From NCBI GenBank assembly GCA_031277035.1, contig JAISLY010000004.1, forward strand, positions 26,980-90,979: a stretch of DNA of 64,000 nucleotides, read 5' to 3'. Below are positions 8,757 through 63,423 of this stretch, in pieces (the stretch's first letter is position 1; each line of letters starts with the position of its first letter). Under the pieces are notes generated by a model, which saw only the letters and a list, made by a program, of their open reading frames with translations, had not been told where the DNA came from and searched no databases. Source of the stretch: Coriobacteriales bacterium. GTDB taxonomy: Bacteria; Actinomycetota; Coriobacteriia; Coriobacteriales; UBA8131. A program made the position numbers and the translations under genes.

Positions 8757-10235
8757 TACGGCCCAGCGCCGCTGCGCGGTCGTCTGCGCGTGCCTTCCGA
8801 CAAGTCGCTTTCGCACCGCGTCGTGCTCTTTGCCGCGATGTCCGAGGGCGTCTCGCGAATCAGCGGCCTGCTCGACTCCCTTGATGTCCGTTCGTCGCTT
8901 GACGCCGTTGCGGCCCTGGGAGCTACGGTTGAGATGCAAAGGGATACAACCGGGCCCGGCGACAGCACAACCGGGCGCGGCGACCCCACAACCGGGCCCG
9001 GCGATAGCACAACCGGGTGCAGCGACCCCACAACCGGGCCCGGCGACAGCACAACGGGCCTGTGCGGCACGATACGCGGCTTTGGTCCTGACGGCCCTCG
9101 CCAGCGCCATCCGGGTACCGCTTCTCCCTTCTTCACCCTCGATTGCGGCAACTCCGGCACGACCTCCCGCCTGCTGCTCGGCCTGCTCGCCGGCTATGAC
9201 CTCACGGCGCTGCTCACCGGAGACGCTTCGCTCTCTCGTCGTCCCATGAACCGCGTAACCCTGCCGCTTCTGACGATGGGCGCACGCTTTGAGGCATCGC
9301 ATGACACGCGCACGGTCTGCACGACCGAAAACTTTGACAGTCTGCCGCTCGTCGTCTATGGGAGCTCGAGCCTGAAGGCCATCGAGTATCGCTCACCGGT
9401 CGCTTCCGCGCAGGTAAAAAGCGCCGTCCTGCTCGCCGGCCTGCATGCTACGGGCACGACCAGCGTCCTTGAGCCGAGCAAGAGCCGCGATCATACCGAA
9501 CTGCTTCTACCGGCCTTTGGCGTCGATGTTCAGGTTGACGGTCTGAGGGTCAGCATCAGAGGCGGCCAGCGTCCCACGGCGCCGCGCGATGTGCTCATTT
9601 TGCCCGGCGACCCCTCTTCGGCGGCATTTTTCCTCGTGGGAGCTGCGCTCGTCCCGCAAAGCGACGTCACGATATGCGACATGCTGCTTAATCCCACCCG
9701 GACGGGCTTTCTTGCGGTTATGCAGCGCATGGGGGCCGACGTCTGTGTCGAGCCACGCACCGCGGCATCCCTTGGTGCCGAGCTCGTCGGGGATGTGACG
9801 GTGCGCTATCGTCCCGTTTTGAAGGCGACGAGGGTTGCTGCCGCGGAAGTGCCAAGTCTGATTGACGAACTCCCCATCCTCGCGCTTCTGGCCACCGGGG
9901 CCGAGGGCACAACGGTTTTTGAGTCTGTGGGAGAGTTGCGCGTCAAGGAAAGCGACCGGCTCGCCGCCATTGAGGAGGGCCTGCGTATCCTTGGTTGCGA
10001 GGCATACAGTGAGGGCGATACGCTTTTCGTCACAGGACGGGGCACGGCGAAGGCGCCCGGCGGGACTGCCGCCGCACACACCACCCTGCTGCGCACCTAC
10101 GGCGACCATCGTCTGGCCATGACCTGGACGATGGCCAACCACGTTTTGGGCCGAGACCATCCTCTCGACGACCCGGCGTGCAGGGCAGTGAGCTACCCCG
10201 ACTTTCTCGACGACCTCAAAACCCTCCTGGCATAG
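8664..10235 (+). CDS. aroA: 3-phosphoshikimate 1-carboxyvinyltransferase (EPSP synthase)
   Basis: PSDKSLSHRVVLFAA, DCGNSGTTSRLL and ESDRLAA motifs. It carries two in-frame repeat insertions. Confidence 0.9.
   Translation: MSTASPAGSREPLSTASPAGPREPLGTASPRYGPAPLRGRLRVPSDKSLSHRVVLFAAMSEGVSRISGLLDSLDVRSSLDAVAALGATVEMQRDTTGPGDSTTGRGDPTTGPGDSTTGCSDPTTGPGDSTTGLCGTIRGFGPDGPRQRHPGTASPFFTLDCGNSGTTSRLLLGLLAGYDLTALLTGDASLSRRPMNRVTLPLLTMGARFEASHDTRTVCTTENFDSLPLVVYGSSSLKAIEYRSPVASAQVKSAVLLAGLHATGTTSVLEPSKSRDHTELLLPAFGVDVQVDGLRVSIRGGQRPTAPRDVLILPGDPSSAAFFLVGAALVPQSDVTICDMLLNPTRTGFLAVMQRMGADVCVEPRTAASLGAELVGDVTVRYRPVLKATRVAAAEVPSLIDELPILALLATGAEGTTVFESVGELRVKESDRLAAIEEGLRILGCEAYSEGDTLFVTGRGTAKAPGGTAAAHTTLLRTYGDHRLAMTWTMANHVLGRDHPLDDPACRAVSYPDFLDDLKTLLA
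8946..9058. repeat. 21-bp tandem repeat x5.4 inside aroA (TTGPGDS heptapeptide units)
   Basis: acaaccgggcccggcgacagc and variants, repeated head to tail. Confidence 0.9.
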
Positions 10236-49269: not shown

Positions 49270-49455
49270 GCGCCTCCTGGTCGGCTGCTGGCCGCTCTGT
49301 TACGAAAGCCTTACCTCTCCTTCACCCTTGTGAGAACTGGCTGCGGCCCAACGCTTGGCAAGACCCGCTATACTTCAGAGGGTGCTCTTTGCAGTATCCA
49401 CGAACCTGCATGGAGCATCGCCTGCAAGAGGGACGGGCTTTGACCTGAATGGCAT

Positions 49456-49758
49456 TTGAAGGACTGGAGGCCAAGAATCGTGTCAATCCTGCTGAGCATT
49501 CTCACCGCACTCATCTCATGCCTCAATTATCTCTGGTGGCTCTATGGTGAACCAATTCCGACCGTAAGCATCACCAGCCAGATTGTGCTCATCGTACTGA
49601 CCATAACGGCTATGGCGACCTATCGAAAAGAGCGTCTGCGCCCCGCCTACGAACTTGGCCAGCCGCGGATATTCACCCTCGGATTCGGAATCACCGTCCT
49701 TTCGCTGATTGCAAACGCTGGCGTCCTCATAGCGATAGTGCTGCTGATACGTGGCTGA
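49456..49758 (+). CDS. Hypothetical small membrane protein (3 TM)
   Basis: Hydrophobic segments only. Non-ATG start in the track. Lower-GC segment. Confidence 0.35.
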   Translation: MKDWRPRIVSILLSILTALISCLNYLWWLYGEPIPTVSITSQIVLIVLTITAMATYRKERLRPAYELGQPRIFTLGFGITVLSLIANAGVLIAIVLLIRG

Positions 49759-49871
49759 AAGCAGCAGGAGCCTGACCGCTTTTGGGTCGGGCCCCTGCGC
49801 AAATGACCAGCTCGTACCATACCACACCATAATCAGTAGACCCTTTTGGTTTCACTGCGGCATCCCTCAGA

Positions 49872-51299
49872 TCAAACTTTCACTATCCAATGCCCCTTTC
49901 TGGCAGTCCCCACATATTCCAGCCTGTTTGCCATCTTTAATTTTTTTATGTGCTTCGATAACGTGGTGCGGGAGATGCCTAATGCTTTTGAAAGATTTGC
50001 CCATGAAAGCTCTGGGCTTTCTTTGAGCAGGGCAAGGATGGCCTCTTGAGCCTGCTCTGGATTATATGACAGCTTCACCGGCTTTCCTATCGGTTCACCT
50101 TTTGGTTCAACAATCGGTACAGCTTCCCTATAAATGTTGACCCTGAAGGTATCGCCAATTTCTTGAAATTCTGGCTCCGGCAACCCCATTGCTTCGCAGC
50201 TTTCCTTGATGCGTTGCAGTCCTGTGCCCCAGTTCTCAAAGAGCCCCATTTGCTTGAATGTCTCTGCCACAACCCTATTTCTCACTGTGACATTTCCCGC
50301 AAGTGCCATTTCGAGCGTCAGTCCGCCATAAAGGGCACCAGGAGAAGAAACCTCCAAGCGGTCATCAAAGAGAAGAACCTGTAAGTGCATGGTGCTTTCC
50401 ATGAATCTGTGAACCTGCCCATTAACGATAGCTTCCCGTATCGCTGCGATTGGCAGCTCATACGTCTCGACGCGCTGCAACCTGTCAAAATCAGCTTTCA
50501 ATCTGATGTTGCGCAATACAAACCGCTCCGCTTCTTCGACTTGCTCATAAATCGGGCCGGAATACTCTCTCTTATCAACAAAGACTGCCCGGTTTGTTCC
50601 CTTGAATACTCCACATTGGACAGCGACGTATTTAAACGGATTGTTGGTCATGAGCATAAAGGCGTTGGTTGGCAAAAGTTCGCCACTCTCTCGCCTGACG
50701 AGCCCCCAGTTCTCAAGATTTTTGATGGTAACTTTCTTCTTTGGTTCAGACAGGCCATTTGTCAGCGCGCTGTTGCGTTTATACCTCTCTATCACCAAAC
50801 AGAGTTTTTCAGCGGCTTTCAGGTCGAGAGGTTCATCCAAATATACCTGAGCATCAAATGAATCGCCCTCTCCTCTCAGTACCAGCTCTTTTACTTTTAC
50901 GGCATCTGCAACACGGCTCGTTGCGCCGACACGAACATAAACGCCCTTTTGTCGACCGAGTGACTTTATGAAATACGGTGTCTTGCGTCCCGGAAAGACT
51001 TCTACCGAGATAATGGTTTTGCCATCAAGCGCATGCGAGGTGATTGCGGGGAACAACTGTGGTTCACAGAGATTTGAGAGGGCATCAGCGATTGAATCTA
51101 TAGTCCGATCTGGTTTATCAACTCCGACAATTTCCCGCGTCTCGTTATCAACGCCAATAATGAGCTTGCCTCCCGAACCATTAGCAAACGCAACGAGCGT
51201 CTTAATGTACCTCAGGTTTTCCTTAGGCAGCTCGCGCTTGAATTCGAGTCTATTTGATTCGCCGCATTTAATATCGGCGAGTAATTCCTCGTTTCCCAT
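49872..51299 (-). CDS. AlbA_2 (Schlafen-like) + HATPase_c_4 + C-terminal wHTH putative regulator/ATP-binding protein
   Basis: ESNRLEFKRELP...VAFANGSGGKLIIGVD, REAIVNGQVHR...DDRLEVSSPG, and a C-terminal LGISRTTLSKHIKKL. Start taken at ATG 51299 (MGNEELL). Confidence 0.8.
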   Translation of the reverse strand: MGNEELLADIKCGESNRLEFKRELPKENLRYIKTLVAFANGSGGKLIIGVDNETREIVGVDKPDRTIDSIADALSNLCEPQLFPAITSHALDGKTIISVEVFPGRKTPYFIKSLGRQKGVYVRVGATSRVADAVKVKELVLRGEGDSFDAQVYLDEPLDLKAAEKLCLVIERYKRNSALTNGLSEPKKKVTIKNLENWGLVRRESGELLPTNAFMLMTNNPFKYVAVQCGVFKGTNRAVFVDKREYSGPIYEQVEEAERFVLRNIRLKADFDRLQRVETYELPIAAIREAIVNGQVHRFMESTMHLQVLLFDDRLEVSSPGALYGGLTLEMALAGNVTVRNRVVAETFKQMGLFENWGTGLQRIKESCEAMGLPEPEFQEIGDTFRVNIYREAVPIVEPKGEPIGKPVKLSYNPEQAQEAILALLKESPELSWANLSKALGISRTTLSKHIKKLKMANRLEYVGTARKGHWIVKV

Positions 51300-51402
51300 T
51301 ACGCCACTTTCTATCTTTTGATTTTCCCAATCTACAGGCTCATATTTTACTACACCGTAGTAGATTGTCTGGCTCCTGCGCTGTGAAGCGCGTTGCGACG
51401 TG

Positions 51403-51510
51403 GAGCGCCGTACAGGATTCGAATCCCATAAACAGCCTGGCCTTGATACGGGGTCCCCAAAAAGTACACTGAGCCCGTAAGGGCGAGGGTTTTTTGGGGG
51501 TCGAGCGCCC
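51403..51510 (-). other. tRNA-like structured element or fragment (acceptor-like 7-bp stem + T-arm-like hairpin with UUCGAAU)
   Basis: The minus strand reads GGGCGCU...UAUGGG-AUUCGAAU-CCUGUA-CGGCGCUCCA. An internal CCCCAAAAA/UUUUUGGGG helix is present. It does not fold into a canonical cloverleaf. Confidence 0.3.
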
Positions 51511-51512
51511 GG

Positions 51513-51536
51513 AAAACGAGCCAGTGGCTCGTTTTT
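51513..51536. terminator. Bidirectional intrinsic terminator (A-tract, stem CGAGCC/GGCTCG, T-tract) downstream of tRNA-Gly
   Basis: aaaacgagccagtggctcgttttt. Confidence 0.55.
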
Positions 51537-51576
51537 AGCGAGACCGGGCGGGAGCTTGCGACCGCCCAAGGGCAAG

Positions 51577-51651
51577 TGGAGCGGGTGACCGGATTCGAAC
51601 CGGCGAGTGCAAGCTTGGGAAGCTTGTGCCTTACCACTTGGCGACACCCGC
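51577..51651 (-). tRNA. tRNA-Gly (anticodon CCC), CCA encoded
   Basis: Hand-folded. Acceptor GCGGGTG/CACCCGC, anticodon loop TTCCCAA, T-loop TTCGAAT. 75 nt. Confidence 0.88.
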
Positions 51652-51816: not shown

Positions 51817-52737
51817 ATGAAGCAGTGCGAACGAGGACATTTCTTTGACGATGTGCGGTATCAGGAATGTCCCTATTGCGATACGGTGCAGCCGACCTAC
51901 GGCTCGACGGTGAGCACGAGTGAGCAGTTGGAGAATACCGAGGCCGAACCGACCGAGGCCGCCGCCCCTGCGGCTGCCGACGCAGACGCGGGTTCGCCGA
52001 CCGAAGGCGCCGCCCCTGTGACCGAGGTCGTGCTTGCGCCGACAATCGTCACGCCCGCGCCGACCATCTCGGCGGTTACCATCTCGCCTGTTTCTGTCTC
52101 AGCGGTGTCGACAACCGCCCCGCCCGCTACAACGGTTACGCCCGCCGCCCCCGCCGCCGGCGCCGGCGCTGACGTCGCACCCGCACCCGCACCCGCCCCC
52201 GCCGCTGACGCCACGCCCGCCCCCGCGACAGAGGCCGCGGGAGCACCAGCGCCCACCACGCCCGCCCCGCCCGCTGTACCTGCCGCCGCCCCCGACCCCG
52301 CGCCTGCCCCATCCCCAGACCTCGCAACCACGGCGACAGCGTCGGCTCCACAGGACATCGGGGCGACCGTCGGCGTCTTCTCGGCCTCGGCCGACACCGA
52401 CCCGCCCGTAGCCTTTGTCATCGTGATTGACGGTCCAGACAAAGGCGCCGCGTTCGCCCTGCGTGCGGGGCGCAGCTTTATCGGTCGGGGGAGCGGCTCG
52501 GACGTGGAACTGTCTGGCGACGCAGCGGTTTCCCGCGAGGGGCATGCCCTTATCAGCTACGACGTACGCAAAAACAGCTTTCAGGTCGCCAGCGGGCAAA
52601 GCCGCTACATCACCTACCTCAACGGAGAGGAGCTTGTTACGCCACGGTCGCTTGCGGCCTACGACACCATCGAGGTGGGGCGCAGCAAACTCAGCTTCCT
52701 GCCCTTCTGCGGCGAACGCTTCAGATGGGAAGCATGA
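51817..52737 (+). CDS. Zinc-ribbon + Pro/Ala-rich linker + C-terminal FHA domain protein
   Basis: N-terminus CERGH...CPYC. FHA core: FIGRGSGSDVELSGDAAVSREGHALI...NGEEL...DTIEVG. Confidence 0.8.
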   Translation: MKQCERGHFFDDVRYQECPYCDTVQPTYGSTVSTSEQLENTEAEPTEAAAPAAADADAGSPTEGAAPVTEVVLAPTIVTPAPTISAVTISPVSVSAVSTTAPPATTVTPAAPAAGAGADVAPAPAPAPAADATPAPATEAAGAPAPTTPAPPAVPAAAPDPAPAPSPDLATTATASAPQDIGATVGVFSASADTDPPVAFVIVIDGPDKGAAFALRAGRSFIGRGSGSDVELSGDAAVSREGHALISYDVRKNSFQVASGQSRYITYLNGEELVTPRSLAAYDTIEVGRSKLSFLPFCGERFRWEA

Positions 52738-52773
52738 AAGAACGCGAGGCCCGAATACGGTAAAGGATACGCG

Positions 52774-53673
52774 GTGAGACTCGATATTGCTCATCTACAG
52801 GGAGAAGGCCGGCGCCGCTACCAGCAGGATTACTTTGCGCTGTCCGATACGAGCCCCGCGGCCCTCGATGCTGGCGTCTTCGATTTCGTGTTGGCCGATG
52901 GCATGGGAGGCGCACTGGACGGCGGGCTTATCGCCAGGGAGACGGTCACCCTTCTGTGCGATTGTCTGGCCGGGGCCGAAGAAACGGCGGAGCTCTCGCT
53001 CAAACCCTCATCTGACCGTGTGGCGGCGAAAATCCCCGCCGCCGACGCTGCCTCCGTCAACACGATGTCAGAGCCCGCCGCCGATGCCGTACCAGCCCCA
53101 GAGCCCGCCGCCGACGCTGCCCCCGCACGCTTTACAAGCGCAGGAGCAACGCCCGAACAGCTGCTCGCCGCCATCAGAAGCGCCAACGCACGTATCTACG
53201 AGCGCTATCACGAGACGGGCGGCACGACGCTCATCGTCGCTCGCATCATCAATGATGCGCTGTGGTTTGCAAGCGTCGGCGACAGCACGCTTTACCTGCG
53301 CCGGGCGGGACGACTCTTTGAGCTCAACCGGCGACACACCTTCCTCCTTGACCTCTATGAGCGGGTTCTCGACGGCCTGCTCAGCGTTGATGACGCACAG
53401 GGCAACGCGCAGGCAAAGGCCCTGAGCAGCTTTATCGGCAGCGGCGCACTGCGCCTCGATTACAGCCGACGCCCTCTTGCACTGCTGCCGGGCGACGTGC
53501 TGCTGGCCTGCTCGGATGGGCTGAGCGACACCCTCACGGCCACACAGATTCTCGAGGCGACGGCATCTGAGGTTCCGTCGCGGCAGGCCGGTGTGGCGCT
53601 CAGGGACATGATTGAGGCGGCAGGCCTGCCGGGGCAGGATAATTACACCGCAATTATTGTGCGTTATGGATAA
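52774..53673 (+). CDS. PP2C-family Ser/Thr phosphatase (canonical metal ligands)
   Basis: LADGMGG, VGDSTLYL, ACSDGLSD and GQDNYTAIIV motifs. GTG start. Confidence 0.85.
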   Translation: MRLDIAHLQGEGRRRYQQDYFALSDTSPAALDAGVFDFVLADGMGGALDGGLIARETVTLLCDCLAGAEETAELSLKPSSDRVAAKIPAADAASVNTMSEPAADAVPAPEPAADAAPARFTSAGATPEQLLAAIRSANARIYERYHETGGTTLIVARIINDALWFASVGDSTLYLRRAGRLFELNRRHTFLLDLYERVLDGLLSVDDAQGNAQAKALSSFIGSGALRLDYSRRPLALLPGDVLLACSDGLSDTLTATQILEATASEVPSRQAGVALRDMIEAAGLPGQDNYTAIIVRYG

Positions 53674-53763
53674 AGCCGGACGAGTCAGGCTGGACGCAAT
53701 GGAGGGACGCCGAGGCGCCAAAGTATGCGGTAGGGATTAAACAGGGAGGGTCAGGGCAGGCAG

Positions 53764-55245
53764 ATGAAAGAGATTACCAATAGAGCGCCGCTGCTCAAAG
53801 TCGCCGTCGCCATCCTTTTGGCGCTCGGGCTGATTGCGATTGGCTTTGGTATCGTGCGAGGCGCCACGAGCAAAAGCTCGCCCACCGATGCCATGCGCGG
53901 CGTGGTCTTTATCTATTCTGAATTTAATGATGGAGAGGATGACTGGATTGCTTCCGGCACGGGCTTTTTCGTTGGCGTGCGCGGACAAAACCCGCGCTAT
54001 GTCGTTACGAACGGGCATGTCATAGAGGAAGGGGATACCTACGACGGGGAGATACGCGTCTACTTCGACGCGTTACATGACGACTACATCGTGCCGACGA
54101 TTGCCTGGGTTGATTACCGCAAGGATCTCGCAATCCTCGACCTTGGCACCACGACCGACAAACGCGTTGCCCTGCCCCTGCTGTTTCGCGACGCGGTGAG
54201 CAAGGGCGAGCAGGTCTATGCGCTTGGCTATCCCGGCGCGTCTGACAGCTCCAAGACCTTCTCCCCCAAGGACGGCAGCGACATCACGATTACCACCGGA
54301 ATCGTGGGGGAGATCATCGAATCCGACCGGGTGCACGCTATTCAGACCGATGCGGACGTGGCCCCCGGCAATTCGGGCGGCCCGCTTGTCAACGCGCAGG
54401 GCGATGTCGTTGGCATCAACACCTGGAAGTCGCTTGAGACGGGTTCGATGACCTTTGCGGTGGCTATTGACGAGATCGTGCCCGCCCTGGATGAGGTGGG
54501 TGTGGCGTATTCGGTCGCGAATCACACCGACGTGCTGACAATGGTCTGCACGATAGTCGGTGCGGTTCTGGTCATCTTTGGCCTGCTGCTCGGCCTGATG
54601 CTGCTTCGCGCCCGGCGCCGTTTGGCAGATGAGCGGGCCGCCTCGGCGCTGTCCGCCGCCGCCGCCGCGCACGCCAACGCCCTGGCCGCCGCGGACACGG
54701 CGACGCGCAACGCGGCAATCGCCGCGCAGGCCGTTGCCGACGCCACTGCCGCAAAGGCCGCGGCAGACGCGGCGATTGCCGCAGCGGCGGCGCAGGAGGT
54801 GGTCAGGGAGGAGATGGCCGAGGCGGCCCGCCGCGCCCAACAGGCCGCCGAAATGGCCGCGCAGCAGGCCGCCCAGCAGGCCGCGCGCAGCGAGGCTGAA
54901 GCAGCGCAGCCACTCTTTCAGCCGGTTCTCGTCGGTCTTGTCGGACAGTTTGCGGGCGTCAGCTTTGACCTGGACACGCGTCTGAATATCGGCCGCGACG
55001 CCTCGCGGTGCAACCTGGTATTCGACCCGGATGTTCCGGGTGTCTCCGGCCTGCACTGTTCGGTGTCCTATGACCGCGTAAGCGAGCGCTTCAAGCTTGA
55101 GGATCACCGCTCAACCTACGGCACCTTCTTCGGAGCCGGACAGCGGATTGACCCCGACCGCCCGGCATTTCTTGCCGCCGGCGACAGCTTCTACCTGGCG
55201 AGTCGCGACACCAGCTTCCAGGTCGCCTTCCGACCCGAATCGTAG
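53764..55245 (+). CDS. Membrane protein: N-terminal TM, trypsin-like (S1) serine protease domain, second TM, Ala-rich coiled-coil region, C-terminal FHA domain
   Basis: Triad contexts TNGHVI, DLAILDL and GNSGGPL. TM VCTIVGAVLVIFGLLLGLMLL. FHA: NIGRDASRCNLVF...VSGLHCSV...STYGTF. Confidence 0.85.
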   Translation: MKEITNRAPLLKVAVAILLALGLIAIGFGIVRGATSKSSPTDAMRGVVFIYSEFNDGEDDWIASGTGFFVGVRGQNPRYVVTNGHVIEEGDTYDGEIRVYFDALHDDYIVPTIAWVDYRKDLAILDLGTTTDKRVALPLLFRDAVSKGEQVYALGYPGASDSSKTFSPKDGSDITITTGIVGEIIESDRVHAIQTDADVAPGNSGGPLVNAQGDVVGINTWKSLETGSMTFAVAIDEIVPALDEVGVAYSVANHTDVLTMVCTIVGAVLVIFGLLLGLMLLRARRRLADERAASALSAAAAAHANALAAADTATRNAAIAAQAVADATAAKAAADAAIAAAAAQEVVREEMAEAARRAQQAAEMAAQQAAQQAARSEAEAAQPLFQPVLVGLVGQFAGVSFDLDTRLNIGRDASRCNLVFDPDVPGVSGLHCSVSYDRVSERFKLEDHRSTYGTFFGAGQRIDPDRPAFLAAGDSFYLASRDTSFQVAFRPES

Positions 55246-55258
55246 CAGGAGACCAGCC

Positions 55259-56137
55259 GTGCGCTTCGATTACGCGCAATACACCTACCTCGCTCCACAC
55301 CTCGGCAATCGGCGCACCAGGTCGAGCACGATACGTCTGCAAGCGGACGACGATTTGTTTGCGGCGGTCATCTGCGAGGGGCTTGGTGGGCCGGATCAGG
55401 GTGAGACGGTCGCCCGCTTTGCTGCTGAGAGGATACGGGCGGATATACGTGCGGGACTGGCCGCGAATCCGTCGGCGGGCTCGGCTTCGGGCCTAGCCGC
55501 GAATCCGTCGGCGGGCTCGGCTTCGGGCCTGGCTTCGAGCCTGACCGCGAATCCGTCGGCGAATCCGTCGGCGGGCCAGTCTGCCGATTTACGCGCCACT
55601 CCCCAAGCCTCGCTTGCGCCCGCCCTGCTCCATGCCCATCAGGCACTCTGCGAACGGCAGCTCGTTGAGCCCGCGATGCGCACGGCGCGCTCGACCGCGG
55701 CCACCTTTGCGCTTGACCCAACATCGGGCGCGCTCAGCTGGGCGACTATCGGTGACAGTCGCGTGTATCTCTTTCAGAACGGAGCGACAGGCCTCCTCAG
55801 CCCCGACGACAGCGCCGGATACGCCGCCTATCTGCGCGGCGAGACCGATTACGAGGGTATTCGTCTGCTTGATTCGCGTGAGGTCCTGACGGCGAGTCTT
55901 GGCGAGCCGAGCGAGCCGGTGGCGCACGAAGGCGTGGCTCGGTTTGCGCCCGGCGACGCGCTGCTTGTGTGCAGCAATGGGTTTTGGGAGTACGTCTTTG
56001 ATCTTGAGGCCTGGATTGACCTGCAGAAATCAGACAGCGCCGAGGAGTGGCTGCGCCTGATGCTTCTGCGTCTGGTAGAACGATCCTGCCTGGCGGGCAA
56101 CGCCTTCTGTGCGGTCGTCTGCCGGGCCCTGGAGTAA
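55259..56137 (+). CDS. PP2C-like protein with substituted metal-binding residues (probable pseudophosphatase)
   Basis: ICEGLGG where xDGMGG is expected. GDSRVYL is retained. CSNGF where CSDG is expected. AGNAF where xDN is expected. GTG 55259 follows AGGAG. Confidence 0.7.
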   Translation: MRFDYAQYTYLAPHLGNRRTRSSTIRLQADDDLFAAVICEGLGGPDQGETVARFAAERIRADIRAGLAANPSAGSASGLAANPSAGSASGLASSLTANPSANPSAGQSADLRATPQASLAPALLHAHQALCERQLVEPAMRTARSTAATFALDPTSGALSWATIGDSRVYLFQNGATGLLSPDDSAGYAAYLRGETDYEGIRLLDSREVLTASLGEPSEPVAHEGVARFAPGDALLVCSNGFWEYVFDLEAWIDLQKSDSAEEWLRLMLLRLVERSCLAGNAFCAVVCRALE

Positions 56138-56140
56138 AAG

Positions 56141-56350
56141 CGGGCGGCGACAACGGGCTCCAGCGGGCGGCCCCAGCGAGCGGGCGGCGACAACGGGCGG
56201 CGACAACGGGCGACAACGGGCGGCGACAACGGGCTCCAGCGGGCGACAACGGGCTCCAGCGGGCGGCGACAAGCGAGCGGGCGACCCCAGCAGGCGACAG
56301 CGGGCTCCAGCGGGCGGCTCCAGCAGGCGACAGCGGGCGACGACAGACCG
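56141..56350. repeat. Tandem short-unit array (ggcgacaacgggctccagcgggc variants) with about 14 GGG tracts on the sense strand
   Basis: Read directly. It fills the gap between the PP2C-like gene and the kinase gene. Confidence 0.85.
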
Positions 56351-56378
56351 ATTTTGAGTGCTGCGAAAGGGTAGTGTG

Positions 56379-58376
56379 ATGGACATCGACTACAGCAGAC
56401 TGTGCTACGGCTGCTTTCGAGAGAGAGGCAGTTTGGGAAGCACCCCGTCGGAGCTGGCCCCAGACGATGCGGTCTGCCCACACTGCGGCTTTGATGCGAG
56501 CGCTGAGCCAATCTATCCGCTGGCCCTGCAACCGGGCAGCATCCTCAACGGGCGCTACCTCGTGGGACGCCCCCTGGGGCAGGGCGGCTTTGGCATCACG
56601 TATCTGGCCTTTGACATGACGCTGCAGATCAAGGTCGCCATCAAGGAATTTCTGCCCACAGGAATGGTCAGTCGCGACAGCGACCGTTCGACGGTCATCC
56701 TGCTTTCACGGCGCAACGATGGTGAGTTTCGGTTTAACAAGGAGAAGTTCCTCGACGAGGCGCGCATTCTCGCCCGACTTTCGGACGCGCCGAATATCGT
56801 AAAGGTGCAAAACTACTTTACAGAGAACAACACGGCCTATTTTACGATGGAATATGTCGACGGCATCAGCCTCAAGGAACGTGTTGCTCAGCAGGGCGGC
56901 CGTCTGCCCTGGGAGCTTGTGAGCGGGTATCTGTTGCCTATCGCCAGCGCTCTGGTTCAGGTGCATGCTGAGAACCTGCTGCATCGTGACATCAGCCCCG
57001 ACAACATCTATCTTACCAGGAAGGGCACGAGCAAGCTCCTCGATTTTGGCGCCGCGCGCTCATCGGGAGGAGACGCGCGGAGCATGTCGATTATCCTCAA
57101 GCACGGGTTTGCGCCTGAGGAGCAGTATCGCACCCACGGCAGACAGGGCCCGTGGACCGATGTCTATGCCCTGGCCGCTACCTATTACTACTGTCTCACC
57201 GGCACGCTGACGCCCGATTCGATTGACCGCCTGCATACCGATACGCTTGTGGCACCAAGCCAGCTTGGCGTGAACCTGCCGCCAGGCGCCGAGGCAGCGC
57301 TGCTCAAAGCTCTGGCCGTGCATGGCGATGACCGCTTCAGGGACATGCAGGCCTTCATGGATGCCGTGACCGGGAAGGTAGCGCCGCTTGAGCCGTCCGT
57401 GCCGCCCACCTTCGCGGCTTCGTCCGTGTCGTCCGTGCCGTTCGTGCCGCCTGCTCTTGCGGCCACCCACTCCATTCCTGTCGCTCAGAGTCCCGCTGTC
57501 GCACCATCCGCCCCCTTCGCCGCCGCAACGTCCGCCGCCGCAACGCCCGCTCCCGCAACGTCGCCTGCTCTCACCCCCGCTCCCACCGCCCCCGCCTTCT
57601 CCACCTCCGCTTCTACCAGCTTTCGCGCCGCCCCCGCCCACACTGCCCTGCCCCCCGTTCCCGCGAGAAAGCCAACGCGTCTGCCGCTTCTCATCGGCGG
57701 CTCAGCCGTGGCCCTTGTCCTTGTCATCGCAACCGTCGCGCTGCTCCTCTTCAATCCCTTCTCGGGCTCGTCAACGACGGGGCAGGGGGCGGCAGACAAC
57801 GGGAACGCAGCCGTCCAGGGGCCGTCTGGCTCTGGCTCCGGCTCCGGCTCCGACTCAAACGGCTCCGGCTCCGGCTCCGAGGGCTCCGACTCCGAGGCTG
57901 GCGGCACCGACAACGGCCGCGTTGAGGAGGTGCCAACGGTCAGCGGGTATTATTACAGCACCGATGTGCCCATCGCTATCATCTCCTCCGCCGGCTGGGA
58001 GATTGACGACAGCCAGGGCAGCCTGACGCTCACGAGCCCCTCGGAAAGCGCAGTCATCAGCTTCTTTCAGGCTGACAACATGAGTCCGGCGACGTTTGCT
58101 CTGCAAAAGACGGTCATGATGGAGACCGCTGCCGAATCCTTTGACGCCTTGAGCTATGAGTTCCTTTTTGAGGAGAACCGCATTATCTCGGGCTACGACT
58201 TCTACGTCCTTGCCTTCACGATGGAGATAGACGACGAGGTGTACGCGGTCTGGTATTACGTCACTTCGGATAACGTGCGCGGCGGCATCGTTACGATGTG
58301 GCTTGAGATGCCCGACGCGACCGACACCGACCGTGCGGATATGGAAAGCATGCTCGGCTCACTCCTTGTGCTGTGA
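56379..58376 (+). CDS. Hanks-type Ser/Thr protein kinase: N-terminal CxxC...CxxC zinc ribbon, kinase domain, Pro/Ala linker, TM, Ser/Gly linker, uncharacterised extracytoplasmic domain
   Basis: GQGGFGITY, VAIKEF, HRDISPDNI, DFGAAR and APE motifs. TM LLIGGSAVALVLVIATVALLLF. Confidence 0.88.
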   Translation: MDIDYSRLCYGCFRERGSLGSTPSELAPDDAVCPHCGFDASAEPIYPLALQPGSILNGRYLVGRPLGQGGFGITYLAFDMTLQIKVAIKEFLPTGMVSRDSDRSTVILLSRRNDGEFRFNKEKFLDEARILARLSDAPNIVKVQNYFTENNTAYFTMEYVDGISLKERVAQQGGRLPWELVSGYLLPIASALVQVHAENLLHRDISPDNIYLTRKGTSKLLDFGAARSSGGDARSMSIILKHGFAPEEQYRTHGRQGPWTDVYALAATYYYCLTGTLTPDSIDRLHTDTLVAPSQLGVNLPPGAEAALLKALAVHGDDRFRDMQAFMDAVTGKVAPLEPSVPPTFAASSVSSVPFVPPALAATHSIPVAQSPAVAPSAPFAAATSAAATPAPATSPALTPAPTAPAFSTSASTSFRAAPAHTALPPVPARKPTRLPLLIGGSAVALVLVIATVALLLFNPFSGSSTTGQGAADNGNAAVQGPSGSGSGSGSDSNGSGSGSEGSDSEAGGTDNGRVEEVPTVSGYYYSTDVPIAIISSAGWEIDDSQGSLTLTSPSESAVISFFQADNMSPATFALQKTVMMETAAESFDALSYEFLFEENRIISGYDFYVLAFTMEIDDEVYAVWYYVTSDNVRGGIVTMWLEMPDATDTDRADMESMLGSLLVL

Positions 58377-61728: not shown

Positions 61729-63423
61729 ATGTCGTTACGGCTCAGCATACAACGCTGGTGGTATATCGGCTACGGCCTTCTCTGGGGAATCCAGTTTGGA
61801 CTGTACTCAAGTCAGAGCTTCTTTGGTTCGGTTGGCTTTGTTCGTCTCCCCAACGATGCCTTTAACCTGAGCTCGCTGATCACCGTCATCGTCTGCTGTG
61901 TTCTGATTGGCCTTGTCTATTGGAGAATGCCCCGCTTGCCCCGATTCATGCCGGTCGCGGTTCCTACGCTTCTGTATCTGATGTCCATCCTCATGTTGGC
62001 CATCCCCAACAGCCCTATTCCTCTGGCACCGTTGATGATTGGCGCGGGTATCGTCTCAGGAGCCAGTTACAGCGTTTTATTGGTGAACTGGTATCGGCTG
62101 CTGGCCACGGGCCCCTCCGCGGACATTTTGCGCCGGGTTGCCGCATCGTCGCTGCTCGGTACCGCGCTGTGCCTGGTCATCTCCTACGCACCGTTTTCGG
62201 TCGTCATGCCGCTGGTGGTTGCCTTTCTCGCGCTGGTGGCCTGGATGCAGCACAGCGCCATTGCCCGCGTTCTCGTCTCTCCGGAGGCTCTGGGCGCCAC
62301 GGCCGCCACGGCCACTCTGGCCGCCACGGCCGCCACGGCCGCGGCAGGCGCTCCGGCCGCGCCAGCCGCCACGGCCGCGCCAGGCGCCACGGCCACTCTG
62401 GGCGCATCCGCCCCCTCTGTGTCCACAGGCTCTCTCGCTCGCACCACAGGCTCTCTCGCTCGCACCACAGGCCCCGCGGTGCCCTCGATGCGACCCATGC
62501 GGCCGCGTCAGGTTGCGACCATGCTGCTTGGGCCACTGATGTGTCGCTGTGCGCTGGGCTTTGCCTTTGCCATTATCAGCCAGGTTGCCTTTGTCTCGCC
62601 CACAGGGTTTATCGGCTCCAACAATCTGTTCAATCTCGGCATGTTCGCCGCCGCCTTTCTGTTCTTTGTCATGGCGGCGACCACGGCGCGCAGTCCTGAG
62701 CCGACGGCTCTGTTCCGAGGACTTTTCCCCGTGCTCGGAGCTGCGCTGTTGCTGCTGCCATTTCTCGATTCGTCGATGTGGGCCATCCTCGCCATGTTTG
62801 TTACCATGGCCGCGCATCTCGTGCAGATTGCCTTTGTCTTTCTGGTGGCCGACCTCGTGTATCGCTCCAGGATTGAGAGTAACATCCTGGCCTCCTTCGT
62901 TCATGCCATCGACCAGTTCGCGATTCTCTTCGGCATCGTTTTGGGCATCACCATCATTGGAGATGACCTGAATACCGTGCGCCTGTCGCTTATCACCGGC
63001 GCGGTTGTCTATCTGTTGATGATGGCGATGTTTTTCTTCGTGCGCTGGAATCGCAACCGTTCAATCGTGCGCGAATGGGAAGGGGAGAGCGGGGCGGCAA
63101 GCGATGGGACAAAAAGCGATGGGACAGGCAGCGCGGCGGGCGGAGTGGCGGGTGTTGCAGGTGGGGGCGCACGGGATGATGTGGCAGGAAGGGCCGCATC
63201 TCGAGCGGATCATCTGGATGCCCAGGTGGGCGCCCTGGCCGCATCTCATGCGCTCACGCCGCGCGAACGGGAGATACTCGGCTACCTTTGCCGGGGGCGT
63301 TCGACGCCGTATATCTGCGAGGAACTGACGCTTTCTAAAAACACCGTGCACTCACATATCAAGCGAATCTATCTCAAACTGGATGTGCATGGTAAACAGG
63401 AACTCCTTGATCTTGTGGAGTAA
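61729..63423 (+). CDS. Membrane-anchored LuxR-family transcriptional regulator (polytopic N-terminal domain + C-terminal HTH)
   Basis: About 10 hydrophobic helices, then REREILGYLCRGRSTPYICEELTLSKNTVHSHIKRIYLKL. Confidence 0.85.
   Translation: MSLRLSIQRWWYIGYGLLWGIQFGLYSSQSFFGSVGFVRLPNDAFNLSSLITVIVCCVLIGLVYWRMPRLPRFMPVAVPTLLYLMSILMLAIPNSPIPLAPLMIGAGIVSGASYSVLLVNWYRLLATGPSADILRRVAASSLLGTALCLVISYAPFSVVMPLVVAFLALVAWMQHSAIARVLVSPEALGATAATATLAATAATAAAGAPAAPAATAAPGATATLGASAPSVSTGSLARTTGSLARTTGPAVPSMRPMRPRQVATMLLGPLMCRCALGFAFAIISQVAFVSPTGFIGSNNLFNLGMFAAAFLFFVMAATTARSPEPTALFRGLFPVLGAALLLLPFLDSSMWAILAMFVTMAAHLVQIAFVFLVADLVYRSRIESNILASFVHAIDQFAILFGIVLGITIIGDDLNTVRLSLITGAVVYLLMMAMFFFVRWNRNRSIVREWEGESGAASDGTKSDGTGSAAGGVAGVAGGGARDDVAGRAASRADHLDAQVGALAASHALTPREREILGYLCRGRSTPYICEELTLSKNTVHSHIKRIYLKLDVHGKQELLDLVE

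Follow-up and report, generated by a model that had tools for sequence, protein, structure and literature searches.

The window analysed here is a stretch of 64,000 nucleotides (nt) from the genome of a Coriobacteriales bacterium (contig JAISLY010000004.1 of assembly GCA_031277035.1), and the system in question is a run of five genes, g1 to g5, at positions 51817-58376. The five plus-strand open reading frames (ORFs) follow one another in that order with gaps of 36 nt (g1-g2), 90 nt (g2-g3), 13 nt (g3-g4) and 241 nt (g4-g5), as the initial annotation of this DNA had it when it described five closely spaced, co-directional genes. They code for a Ser/Thr kinase, two PP2C-type phosphatases and two proteins with FHA domains, one of which also carries a protease domain on the far side of a membrane helix. 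Our data indicate that the five genes very probably form one conserved phospho-Thr signalling unit. The genes and their main features are as follows.

51817-52737, plus strand: g1, 306 amino acids (aa), FHA adaptor with a putative zinc ribbon
52360-52380, plus strand: Thr184 motif of g1 (residues 182-188, GATVGVF)
52774-53673, plus strand: g2, 299 aa, canonical PP2C phosphatase
53764-55245, plus strand: g3, 493 aa, S1 protease, transmembrane helix and FHA domain
55259-56137, plus strand: g4, 292 aa from its likely GTG start, second PP2C
56379-58376, plus strand: g5, 665 aa from its likely ATG start, Hanks-type kinase with a putative zinc ribbon
57921-58373, plus strand: ectodomain of g5, a putative sensor

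The joint conservation of the five families carries this conclusion. A scan of genome contigs with the alignment of the protease-FHA protein keyed on the generic HtrA motif GNSGGPL and returned hardly anything but ordinary HtrA genes, with two loci (L005 and L009) as the only true relatives. Local profiles for each family were also applied to 80 metagenome contigs retrieved by the FHA motif D[LHR]xSTYGTF. A protease-FHA gene is present in 59 of these, and the counts given here use only those of the 59 that have enough flanking DNA. A g2-type PP2C gene lies directly upstream of the protease-FHA gene in all 37 informative contigs, and a g4-type PP2C gene directly downstream in 47 of 52, with two more close by. 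The adaptor is found in 33 of 33 contigs and the kinase in 20 of 21. After g4, a sixth gene for another membrane protein with a cytoplasmic FHA tail is present in 22 of 29 contigs; its ectodomain is often a vWA domain, in other cases lipocalin-like, or an RDD membrane domain stands in its place. Most often the genes run kinase, adaptor, PP2C, protease-FHA and PP2C, usually followed by this sixth gene. The flanks of the metagenome contigs are unrelated to the cassette (chemotaxis receptors, LigB, PPDK), as are those of all other lineages examined, and in a low-GC example (L122) its genes lie 7-47 nt apart or overlap. Because the families recur together in dozens of unrelated contigs, their clustering goes far beyond chance. 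Gene content and order in loci from named lineages are as follows.

Clostridium fungisolvens (L002): FHA adaptor, PP2C, protease-FHA, PP2C, vWA-FHA, kinase-RDD-FHA, RDD-FHA, kinase-TPR
Lachnospiraceae metagenome-assembled genome (MAG; L003): kinase, protease-FHA, PP2C
Oscillibacter (L005): kinase, adaptor, PP2C, protease-FHA, PP2C, x-FHA
Cohnella (L009): PP2C, protease-FHA, PP2C, kinase, adaptor

A Coriobacteriales MAG (L001) has the identical five genes in the identical order between other flanks. The initial annotation had proposed to check whether the five families travel together elsewhere, and they do: they are co-conserved in Coriobacteriales, Clostridia and Bacilli, and the idea of a joint module stands. 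The cassette is common in Firmicutes from gut, rumen, termite gut and digesters; among the loci examined its distribution is patchy, and close relatives are rare in Coriobacteriia. The module in the window is a reduced, lineage-specific variant: where the widespread cassette has six genes, it lacks the sixth, and its kinase has shifted to the 3' end. A local vWA profile, built from one sequence, gave no further match in the window. Several gut contigs (L150, L152 and L162-L164) have a kinase-array variant of the cassette, in which two FHA proteins are followed by 2-6 tandem zinc-ribbon kinase paralogues and no protease gene is present; some of them have a further kinase copy upstream. CA_C0403-0410 of Clostridium acetobutylicum may be another copy of the cassette, the genome annotation of this species listing a similar cluster around CA_C0404. 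CA_C0404 has been described as a Ser/Thr kinase and tentatively tied to biofilm regulation.

The protein that most distinguishes the cassette is g3. Pfam Trypsin_2 matches its residues 65-218 (E = 1.4e-23, 84.7 bits against a cut-off of 27.6) and Pfam FHA its residues 408-478 (E = 6.3e-10, 39.8 bits against 20.7), the FHA domain as a whole spanning about residues 396-493. Hydrophobic helices occur at residues 13-31, an N-terminal anchor or signal, and at residues 263-281, a membrane helix between Trypsin_2 and FHA, in agreement with the earlier description of an FHA domain fused across the membrane to a protease. The second helix is followed by the basic stretch RARRR, an Ala-rich linker and the cytoplasmic FHA domain. 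Among 20 homologues, H85 and S204 of the catalytic triad are invariant and D121 is present in at least 90%, and the FHA residues G410, R411, S428 and H431 (the GR and SxxH motifs) are invariant as well. The nearest solved structures to the protease domain are HtrA proteases, and the HtrA, DegS and MarP equivalog models score 47-80 bits on g3 versus cut-offs of 250-470. No PDZ domain was matched in g3 by Pfam at E <= 0.1, the membrane helix coming directly after the protease domain. We therefore predict that the N-terminal part is an extracytoplasmic, HtrA-like S1 protease without PDZ. From this architecture it would follow that proteolysis is coupled to phospho-Thr recognition. The protease-transmembrane-FHA family comprises 700 database proteins at E <= 1e-5, and 119 of the 120 best have both Trypsin_2 and FHA. 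Its named members are mostly from Clostridia. The sole close relative of g3 (70% identity) comes from a Coriobacteriales MAG, and an exact-sequence look-up gave no match. As a side observation, the FHA domains of Clostridium RDD-FHA and kinase-RDD-FHA proteins read S-[ST]-[YF]-G-T, as that of g3 does, and the vWA-FHA partner retains STNGT.

The kinase g5, with its likely start at ATG 56379, matches Pfam Pkinase (E = 1.7e-27, 96.9 bits against a cut-off of 31.7), and its best NCBIfam match is the Stk1/PknB family. A putative zinc ribbon (CxxC...CxxC, residues 9-36) precedes the kinase domain (about residues 53-336, with K89, HRDISPDN and DFG), which is followed by a juxtamembrane region rich in Thr, Pro and Ala, a membrane helix at residues 437-455 with basic residues ahead of it, a Gly/Ser linker and an ectodomain of about 150 residues. 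The CxxC...CxxC pattern is present in 32 of 38 orthologues, and most of the remaining six seem N-terminally truncated; G67-G72, K89, D204, N209 and D222-F-G are conserved among 39 orthologues. The family has an invariant Lys within an LKxG[FY]APxEQ segment, which may represent the catalytic-loop Lys in a relocated position. Activation loops, extractable from 10 of the 39 sequences, contain Ser and no Thr; because the recovered loops lack Thr, docking sites for FHA domains must lie elsewhere.

The g5 ectodomain is nearly an orphan at the sequence level. Among 1.84 billion representative sequences it has two strong and two weak full-domain relatives; a word-indexed search found one relative, and an exhaustive search added two weak full-domain ones. 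Repetitive matches to the ectodomain were discarded as apparently spurious, covering short stretches and giving only low-complexity Pfam noise. A single-sequence AlphaFold prediction was unusable (predicted local distance difference test score, pLDDT, of 45), whereas AlphaFold2 run on the four-sequence alignment gave a pLDDT of 87.9 and a predicted template-modelling score of 0.81. In a Foldseek search of this model against the PDB, PsbP was matched at E = 6.6e-6 and probability 1.0, with template-modelling scores of 0.55-0.67 (CyanoP 0.67), and further matches were Apa, DcrB, LpqN and Mog1. According to this modelling, the ectodomain is predicted to be an alpha-beta-alpha sandwich of the PsbP/Mog1/DcrB/LpqN/Apa type. 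Folds like PsbP and Mog1 are frequent among envelope-associated binding proteins. Two small single-pass membrane proteins, P0124 (226 aa) and P0129 (237 aa), bear a PsbP-like ectodomain of the g5 type, and hence this domain is also a stand-alone surface module.

The adaptor g1 is the sole fully soluble, non-enzymatic component of the cassette. It consists of an N-terminal zinc ribbon, a 173-aa linker rich in Pro, Ala and Thr, a C-terminal FHA domain and, after it, the motif F-x-P-x-C-G-E-x-F-x-W. Pfam Yop-YscD_cpl (E = 1.2e-8, 35.5 bits against a cut-off of 33.2) and FHA (E = 7.8e-6, 26.7 bits against 20.7) both match its C terminus. Among 39 orthologues, C4, H8, C18 and C21 are invariant, the F-x-P-x-C-G-E-x-F-x-W tail likewise, and the FHA residues G223-R224, S239, H243 and N269 are conserved. 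The zinc ribbons that the initial annotation placed on g1 and g5 are thus backed by conserved Cys/His patterns, but no Pfam zinc-ribbon model matches either protein, and the calls rest on those patterns. An Asn-to-Tyr change was considered as a family trait of the g1 FHA domain and rejected, Asn being kept in most of the g1 orthologues shown. The nearest solved structures are the FHA domains of GarA and OdhI (E = 3e-6).

About 12 residues ahead of the FHA domain, g1 carries a motif that reads [G/K]-K-T-V-G-[MLIV] across the family. All 39 orthologues have T184, while V185 is shared by 82% of them and G186 by the same proportion; counted from T184, the +3 residue is hydrophobic in the orthologues shown. 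A hydrophobic +3 residue is favoured by many FHA domains. Thr184 is therefore a candidate kinase target and a candidate intramolecular FHA ligand. In Firmicutes the g1 linker has arrays of [KR]-T-x-P. The median copy number is 5, and 29 of the 37 sequences have two copies or more, where shuffled sequences would give fewer than 0.4. The repeat unit is [KR]-T-x-P-[LPI], often QKTAPL or KTMPPRGY, in up to 7 copies, and examples are L005 (3839-4684), L109 and L158. In the window, low-complexity Pro/Ala/Thr sequence stands where Firmicutes have the array.

The phosphatase g2 matches Pfam PP2C_2 (E = 7.7e-8, 32.6 bits against a cut-off of 24), with SpoIIE and PP2C above cut-off too, and NCBIfam Stp1 (Stp1/IreP) at 4e-23. 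All PP2C motifs checked in the alignment are present (QQD, DGMGG, GDS, SDG and DN, read as ADGMGG, VGDS, CSDG and QDN). By its motifs, g2 is a soluble, canonical PP2C with the metal-binding Asp residues, suited to the role of eraser.

The second phosphatase is a different case. The g4 ORF opens with TTG at 55097, overlapping g3, and translation probably begins at GTG 55259, 8-9 nt downstream of an AGGAG. Its identity as a PP2C is weak by general models, with NCBIfam Stp1 (3.4e-15) and Pfam SpoIIE (0.0094) both below cut-off. It matches the local family profile hidden Markov model at 1.8e-103, though, and aligns over its full length to Clostridial orthologues that pass Pfam PP2C_2, which points to a PP2C fold; the subfamily is distinct, with DGFWEY as its hallmark. 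The domain calls of the initial annotation (FHA, PP2C, S1 and kinase) are accordingly confirmed by Pfam or NCBIfam, for g4 only via the below-cut-off Stp1 match. Four catalytic-motif Asp positions are replaced in g4 (NED to RSS, DGLGG to EGLGG, SDG to SNG, DN to NA). These changes (D to S, D to E, D to N and D to N) are unique to the window copy, 1 of 70 orthologues, and the other 69 keep the four Asp residues, bar a few alignment gaps and one Thr. With metal-ligand Asp lost, g4 in the window is probably a dead enzyme, the pseudo-eraser that the initial annotation had suspected. Because the Asp residues are kept in the remaining orthologues, the dead second phosphatase is a peculiarity of this genome and no design feature of the cassette. 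Decay to a pseudogene was considered and rejected: the ORF is intact, and g4 has diverged from its L001 orthologue no further (66% identity) than the other four genes have from theirs (64-68%), so that g4 looks like a maintained pseudo-enzyme. The gene also contains a short duplication, within a low-complexity insert that the Clostridial orthologues do not have.

55452-55577, plus strand: tandem duplication in g4, 36-nt unit, encoding repeated GLAANPSAGSAS

Taken with the basic residues that follow the second helix of g3 and precede the helix of g5, the hydropathy helices predict that the g3 protease domain and the C-terminal 210 residues of g5 lie outside the cell, and that both FHA domains, both PP2Cs and the kinase domain lie inside.

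The surroundings of the module set its limits. A tRNA-Gly(ccc) gene at 51577-51651 (ARAGORN) lies 165 nt upstream of g1; the initial annotation had the module start right after it, which holds for the position, but the tRNA is on the minus strand and is not co-directional. The tRNA gene, itself no part of the module, delimits it on the upstream side. The other neighbours are unrelated: a DUF3048 gene, a gene with AlbA_2, HATPase_c_4 and helix-turn-helix (HTH) domains, a convergent ThiF gene, a MobA-like gene, XdhC and a LuxR-type regulator. Because the flanking genes are unrelated, the module is self-contained, as had been proposed. The GC content of the module is 0.65, within the range of the remaining window. 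A segment at about 49400-51650, beside the tRNA-Gly gene, has low GC (0.52 versus about 0.63) and contains the gene with AlbA_2/Schlafen, HATPase_c_4 and HTH domains; a small island may have integrated here, next to the module. The gene at 61729-63423 codes for a protein whose long N-terminal part is hydrophobic and probably crosses the membrane several times, and which ends in a LuxR/GerE HTH domain. Regulators of this type are expanded in Eggerthellaceae, in keeping with an origin of the window from Coriobacteriia.

The gap between g4 and g5 is filled largely by a repeat.

56146-56338, plus strand: minisatellite, G-rich unit of about 13 nt, GGCGACAACGGGC and variants, 8 copies

All 8 copies of GGCGACAACGGGC with at most one mismatch lie inside this gap, and the rest of the window has only matches with two mismatches. 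GGG runs recur every 10-13 nt. A G-quadruplex or transcription-modulating role is conceivable, and the repeat may also be non-functional. In the relative L001 the same gap is 12 nt long, versus 241 nt in the window. The g3-g4 gap of L001 (about 9426-9600) has a different tandem repeat of about 45 nt, GGCGTGCC...GGTTCCG.AAGG.G.AGGGGCAGA, and intergenic repeat expansion within the operon therefore seems to recur in this lineage.

These observations of domain identity, catalytic-residue status, topology signals, co-conservation and conserved Thr motifs allow a working model, from which we infer kinase-substrate pairs, the direction of signalling, the substrate of the protease and the physiological output. 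The single-pass kinase g5, switched via its PsbP-like ectodomain, would phosphorylate the soluble adaptor g1 on Thr, and perhaps juxtamembrane segments as well. On g1 the targets would be Thr184 beside the FHA domain and the Thr-rich linker, represented in Firmicutes by the [KR]-T-x-P array. Phosphorylated Thr184 could fold back onto the FHA domain of the same molecule in a switch of the GarA/OdhI type, and at the remaining phospho-Thr sites the membrane protease g3 would dock through its cytoplasmic FHA domain, as would vWA and other ectodomain proteins with FHA tails in fuller cassettes. Phosphorylation inside the cell would in this way determine how an HtrA-like protease assembles or clusters on the outside of the membrane and thereby how active it is, and g2 would reset the system. 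g4, an active phosphatase in other lineages, would be dead here and probably retained as a subunit that binds phospho-sites or serves as a scaffold. The output is probably remodelling of the cell envelope or cell surface. For the overall picture of a membrane-associated kinase/adaptor/protease cassette that works as proposed, we lean slightly towards its being right.

Several observations weigh against this model. The FHA domain of g3 reads STYGT (residues 450-454, 55111-55125) instead of the canonical STNGT in 20 of 20 aligned members, and that of g1 carries one extra residue between the Ser and the His that match the canonical SxxH; phospho-Thr binding by the two FHA domains is assumed, not certain. 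In the kinase, the canonical catalytic-loop Lys is missing. All 39 orthologues have HRD[VI][TSA]PDN (here HRDISPDN, residues 202-209, 56982-57005), and for this reason the activity of the kinase family is unproven. The window g1 linker has 26 Thr, zero Lys or Arg and no [KR]TxP repeats, so that the scaffold idea rests mainly on the Firmicute relatives; the repeats are absent also from the g1 linker of the MAG relative. In addition, no protease substrate or output gene is identifiable for the cassette, and the repeat-filled 241-nt gap before g5 could split the transcription units. Finally, a search of public sequencing runs for DNA of the locus found no run that carries it.

Comparison with known kinase/PP2C/FHA circuits suggests how such a cassette could work. 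It belongs to none of those compared, because the defining features tested are not found in it, yet it would work like them, and what sets it apart is an ecto-protease fused across the membrane to FHA, the presence of two PP2Cs and an adaptor with both a zinc ribbon and Thr repeats. One of the closest is the actinobacterial fhaA-fhaB(fipA)-pstP-rodA-pbpA-pknA-pknB locus, which likewise combines one or more Hanks kinases, a PP2C and two FHA proteins, one of them membrane-anchored, as writer, eraser and readers. In contrast to that locus, the cassette has no RodA/FtsW, penicillin-binding protein (PBP) or PASTA repeats, its membrane FHA protein has an ecto-protease, and it adds a second PP2C and zinc ribbons on kinase and adaptor. 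The NCBIfam equivalog models fall far below cut-off: FhaB/FipA gives 29.5 and 32.9 on g1 and g3 versus 125, MarP 59 on g3 versus 250, and PknB_PASTA_kin 131 on g5 versus 450. None of the lineages examined has RodA/FtsW or PBP genes within the cassette or next to it, and the operon has no PASTA repeats, in line with the earlier remark that the module lacks FtsW and PBP genes.

In GarA and OdhI, the classical FHA proteins of Mycobacterium and Corynebacterium that are switched by an N-terminal phospho-Thr, as in g1, a conserved Thr motif lies ahead of the FHA domain of a small soluble protein (ETTS in GarA, K-T-V-G in g1). g1 differs by its zinc ribbon, its long Thr-rich or repeat-bearing linker and its FxPxCGExFxW tail, it has no evident metabolic enzyme partner, and the OdhI equivalog model scores 32.3 on it versus a cut-off of 200. 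By analogy, g1 may work like GarA/OdhI, yet it is no member of that family. In the Arn system of Sulfolobus, the zinc-ribbon FHA protein ArnA, the vWA protein ArnB, the kinases ArnC and ArnD and a PP2A phosphatase control complex formation and surface structures by "counting" multiple phospho-Thr residues, and the ArnA zinc ribbon binds its partner ArnB. The cassette shares with it a zinc-ribbon FHA adaptor alongside a vWA protein, Hanks kinases and a phosphatase, whereas the Arn system is archaeal and cytoplasmic, uses PP2A and not PP2C, and has no protease. ArnA is absent from the PDB matches of g1 at E <= 0.01, and the similarity is that of FHA domains in general.

The TerY-P triad comprises the vWA protein TerY, a PP2C and a Ser/Thr kinase with a C-terminal zinc ribbon, and some of these triads act in defence. 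The cassette resembles it in its PP2C and zinc-ribbon kinase and, in fuller Firmicute versions, its vWA partner. The TerY-P ribbon, however, is C-terminal, where that of g5 is N-terminal; the triad has soluble components and neither FHA proteins nor a protease, and the window copy of the cassette lacks a vWA gene. Phosphorylation of the Fha1 adaptor drives assembly of a membrane machine in the type VI secretion system (T6SS). The T6SS threonine phosphorylation pathway consists of PpkA, PppA and Fha1. As in the cassette, its Hanks kinase spans the membrane and bears an ectodomain, and it is joined by a PP2C and an FHA adaptor. Unlike in T6SS, no secretion-system genes lie near the cassette, and the assembled machine would be the protease. 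The Deinococcus radiodurans operon DRA0331-0334 encodes vWA, Ser/Thr protein kinase, FHA and PP2C proteins and is linked to DNA-damage sensing; it lacks an ecto-protease and a second PP2C, and its PP2C is fused to an FHA-like domain. With HtrA, DegS and MarP, g3 shares a membrane-tethered chymotrypsin-fold ecto-protease with a His-Asp-Ser triad. In g3, by contrast, the regulatory module is a cytoplasmic FHA domain across the membrane and no PDZ is detected. Literature searches aimed at the protease-FHA cassette found no description of it, and the initial annotation, too, knew of no described system of such composition.

Of the other explanations that we weighed, the one that survives best differs from our model in output and not in wiring. 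The cassette would regulate cell-wall growth or division, its ecto-protease processing a peptidoglycan hydrolase or synthase partner, much as MarP processes RipA in mycobacteria. The weak matches of g1 and g3 to FhaB/FipA and of g3 to MarP fit such a role, as do the Stk1/PknB family as best NCBIfam match of the kinase and an ectodomain fold common to the envelope proteins LpqN, Apa and DcrB. Nevertheless, the FhaB/FipA, MarP and PknB_PASTA_kin matches stay far below the curated cut-offs, PASTA repeats and neighbouring FtsW/RodA or PBP genes are missing, and the patchy distribution is unlike that of a core division locus. We consider this role unlikely.

Signalling might also run from the outside in. 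The ecto-protease, together with the vWA domain in fuller cassettes, would then be the sensor, substrate engagement or self-cleavage would alter the contact of the FHA tail with the kinase or adaptor, and g1 would relay the signal through its zinc ribbon. In every membrane component the ectodomain does vary while the FHA or catalytic domain on the cytoplasmic side is conserved, and g1, being soluble and non-enzymatic with an invariant zinc ribbon, could contact a downstream target as the ArnA ribbon binds ArnB. No g1 target is encoded nearby, however, and HtrA-type proteases are generally effectors regulated by oligomerisation. We judge this direction improbable, although the sequence data do not separate it from signalling through the kinase and adaptor to the protease.

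A defensive function appears more doubtful still. Here the cassette would serve in conflict or phage defence in the manner of TerY-P, with phosphorylation arming the response and the variable ectodomains reflecting an arms race. TerY-P combines vWA, PP2C and a zinc-ribbon kinase and is in part defensive, and fuller cassettes have a vWA-FHA gene; the kinase matches the PD-T4-6 and mad6 models, kinase ectodomains vary widely, related loci contain tandem kinase arrays, and the module adjoins a tRNA gene and a low-GC segment. The PADLOC matches, however, reflect generic kinase and trypsin domains and leave g1, g2 and g4 unmatched, and on these grounds membership of a known defence system was rejected. 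No nuclease, NTPase or other effector is found in the cassette or its annotated flanks, the GC content of 0.65 is ordinary for the window, the g5 ribbon is at the opposite end from that of TerY-P kinases, and the window copy has no vWA gene. Likewise, no copy was found among the 2.9 million viral contigs of IMG/VR, and a phage or prophage origin was rejected. As for chance adjacency, or signalling genes without a joint function, the 241-nt gap before g5 would allow it, but the near-fixed order of the five families across dozens of contigs from different phyla and habitats refutes it and leaves it with a negligible probability.

Returning to the membrane-associated kinase/adaptor/protease cassette, we put forward, as a tentative possibility, that it is a bacterial "receptor-kinase signalosome". 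In this extension, g1 would be a multi-phospho-Thr scaffold, with its [KR]TxP array and a GarA-like Thr gate, that counts kinase activity and recruits the FHA tails of ecto-enzymes and receptors (protease, vWA, lipocalin-like). It would thereby exert inside-out control of surface proteolysis and adhesion in Gram-positive gut bacteria, and the dead PP2C of the present genome would serve as a phospho-site trap.

Gram-positive bacteria use circuits of kinase, PP2C and FHA proteins as their main eukaryote-like route of signalling, and the studied examples control division, central metabolism or secretion. The cassette would add a further output, namely an extracellular protease, plus an adhesion-type vWA protein in fuller versions, connected through the membrane with readers of phospho-Thr. 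It also lends itself to clean tests of multi-site phospho-Thr scaffolding, of a kinase family without the catalytic-loop Lys and of PP2C orthologues that occur naturally in an active and a dead form. Given its spread in gut, rumen, termite-gut and digester Firmicutes, the cassette may govern surface remodelling or sensing by abundant commensals.

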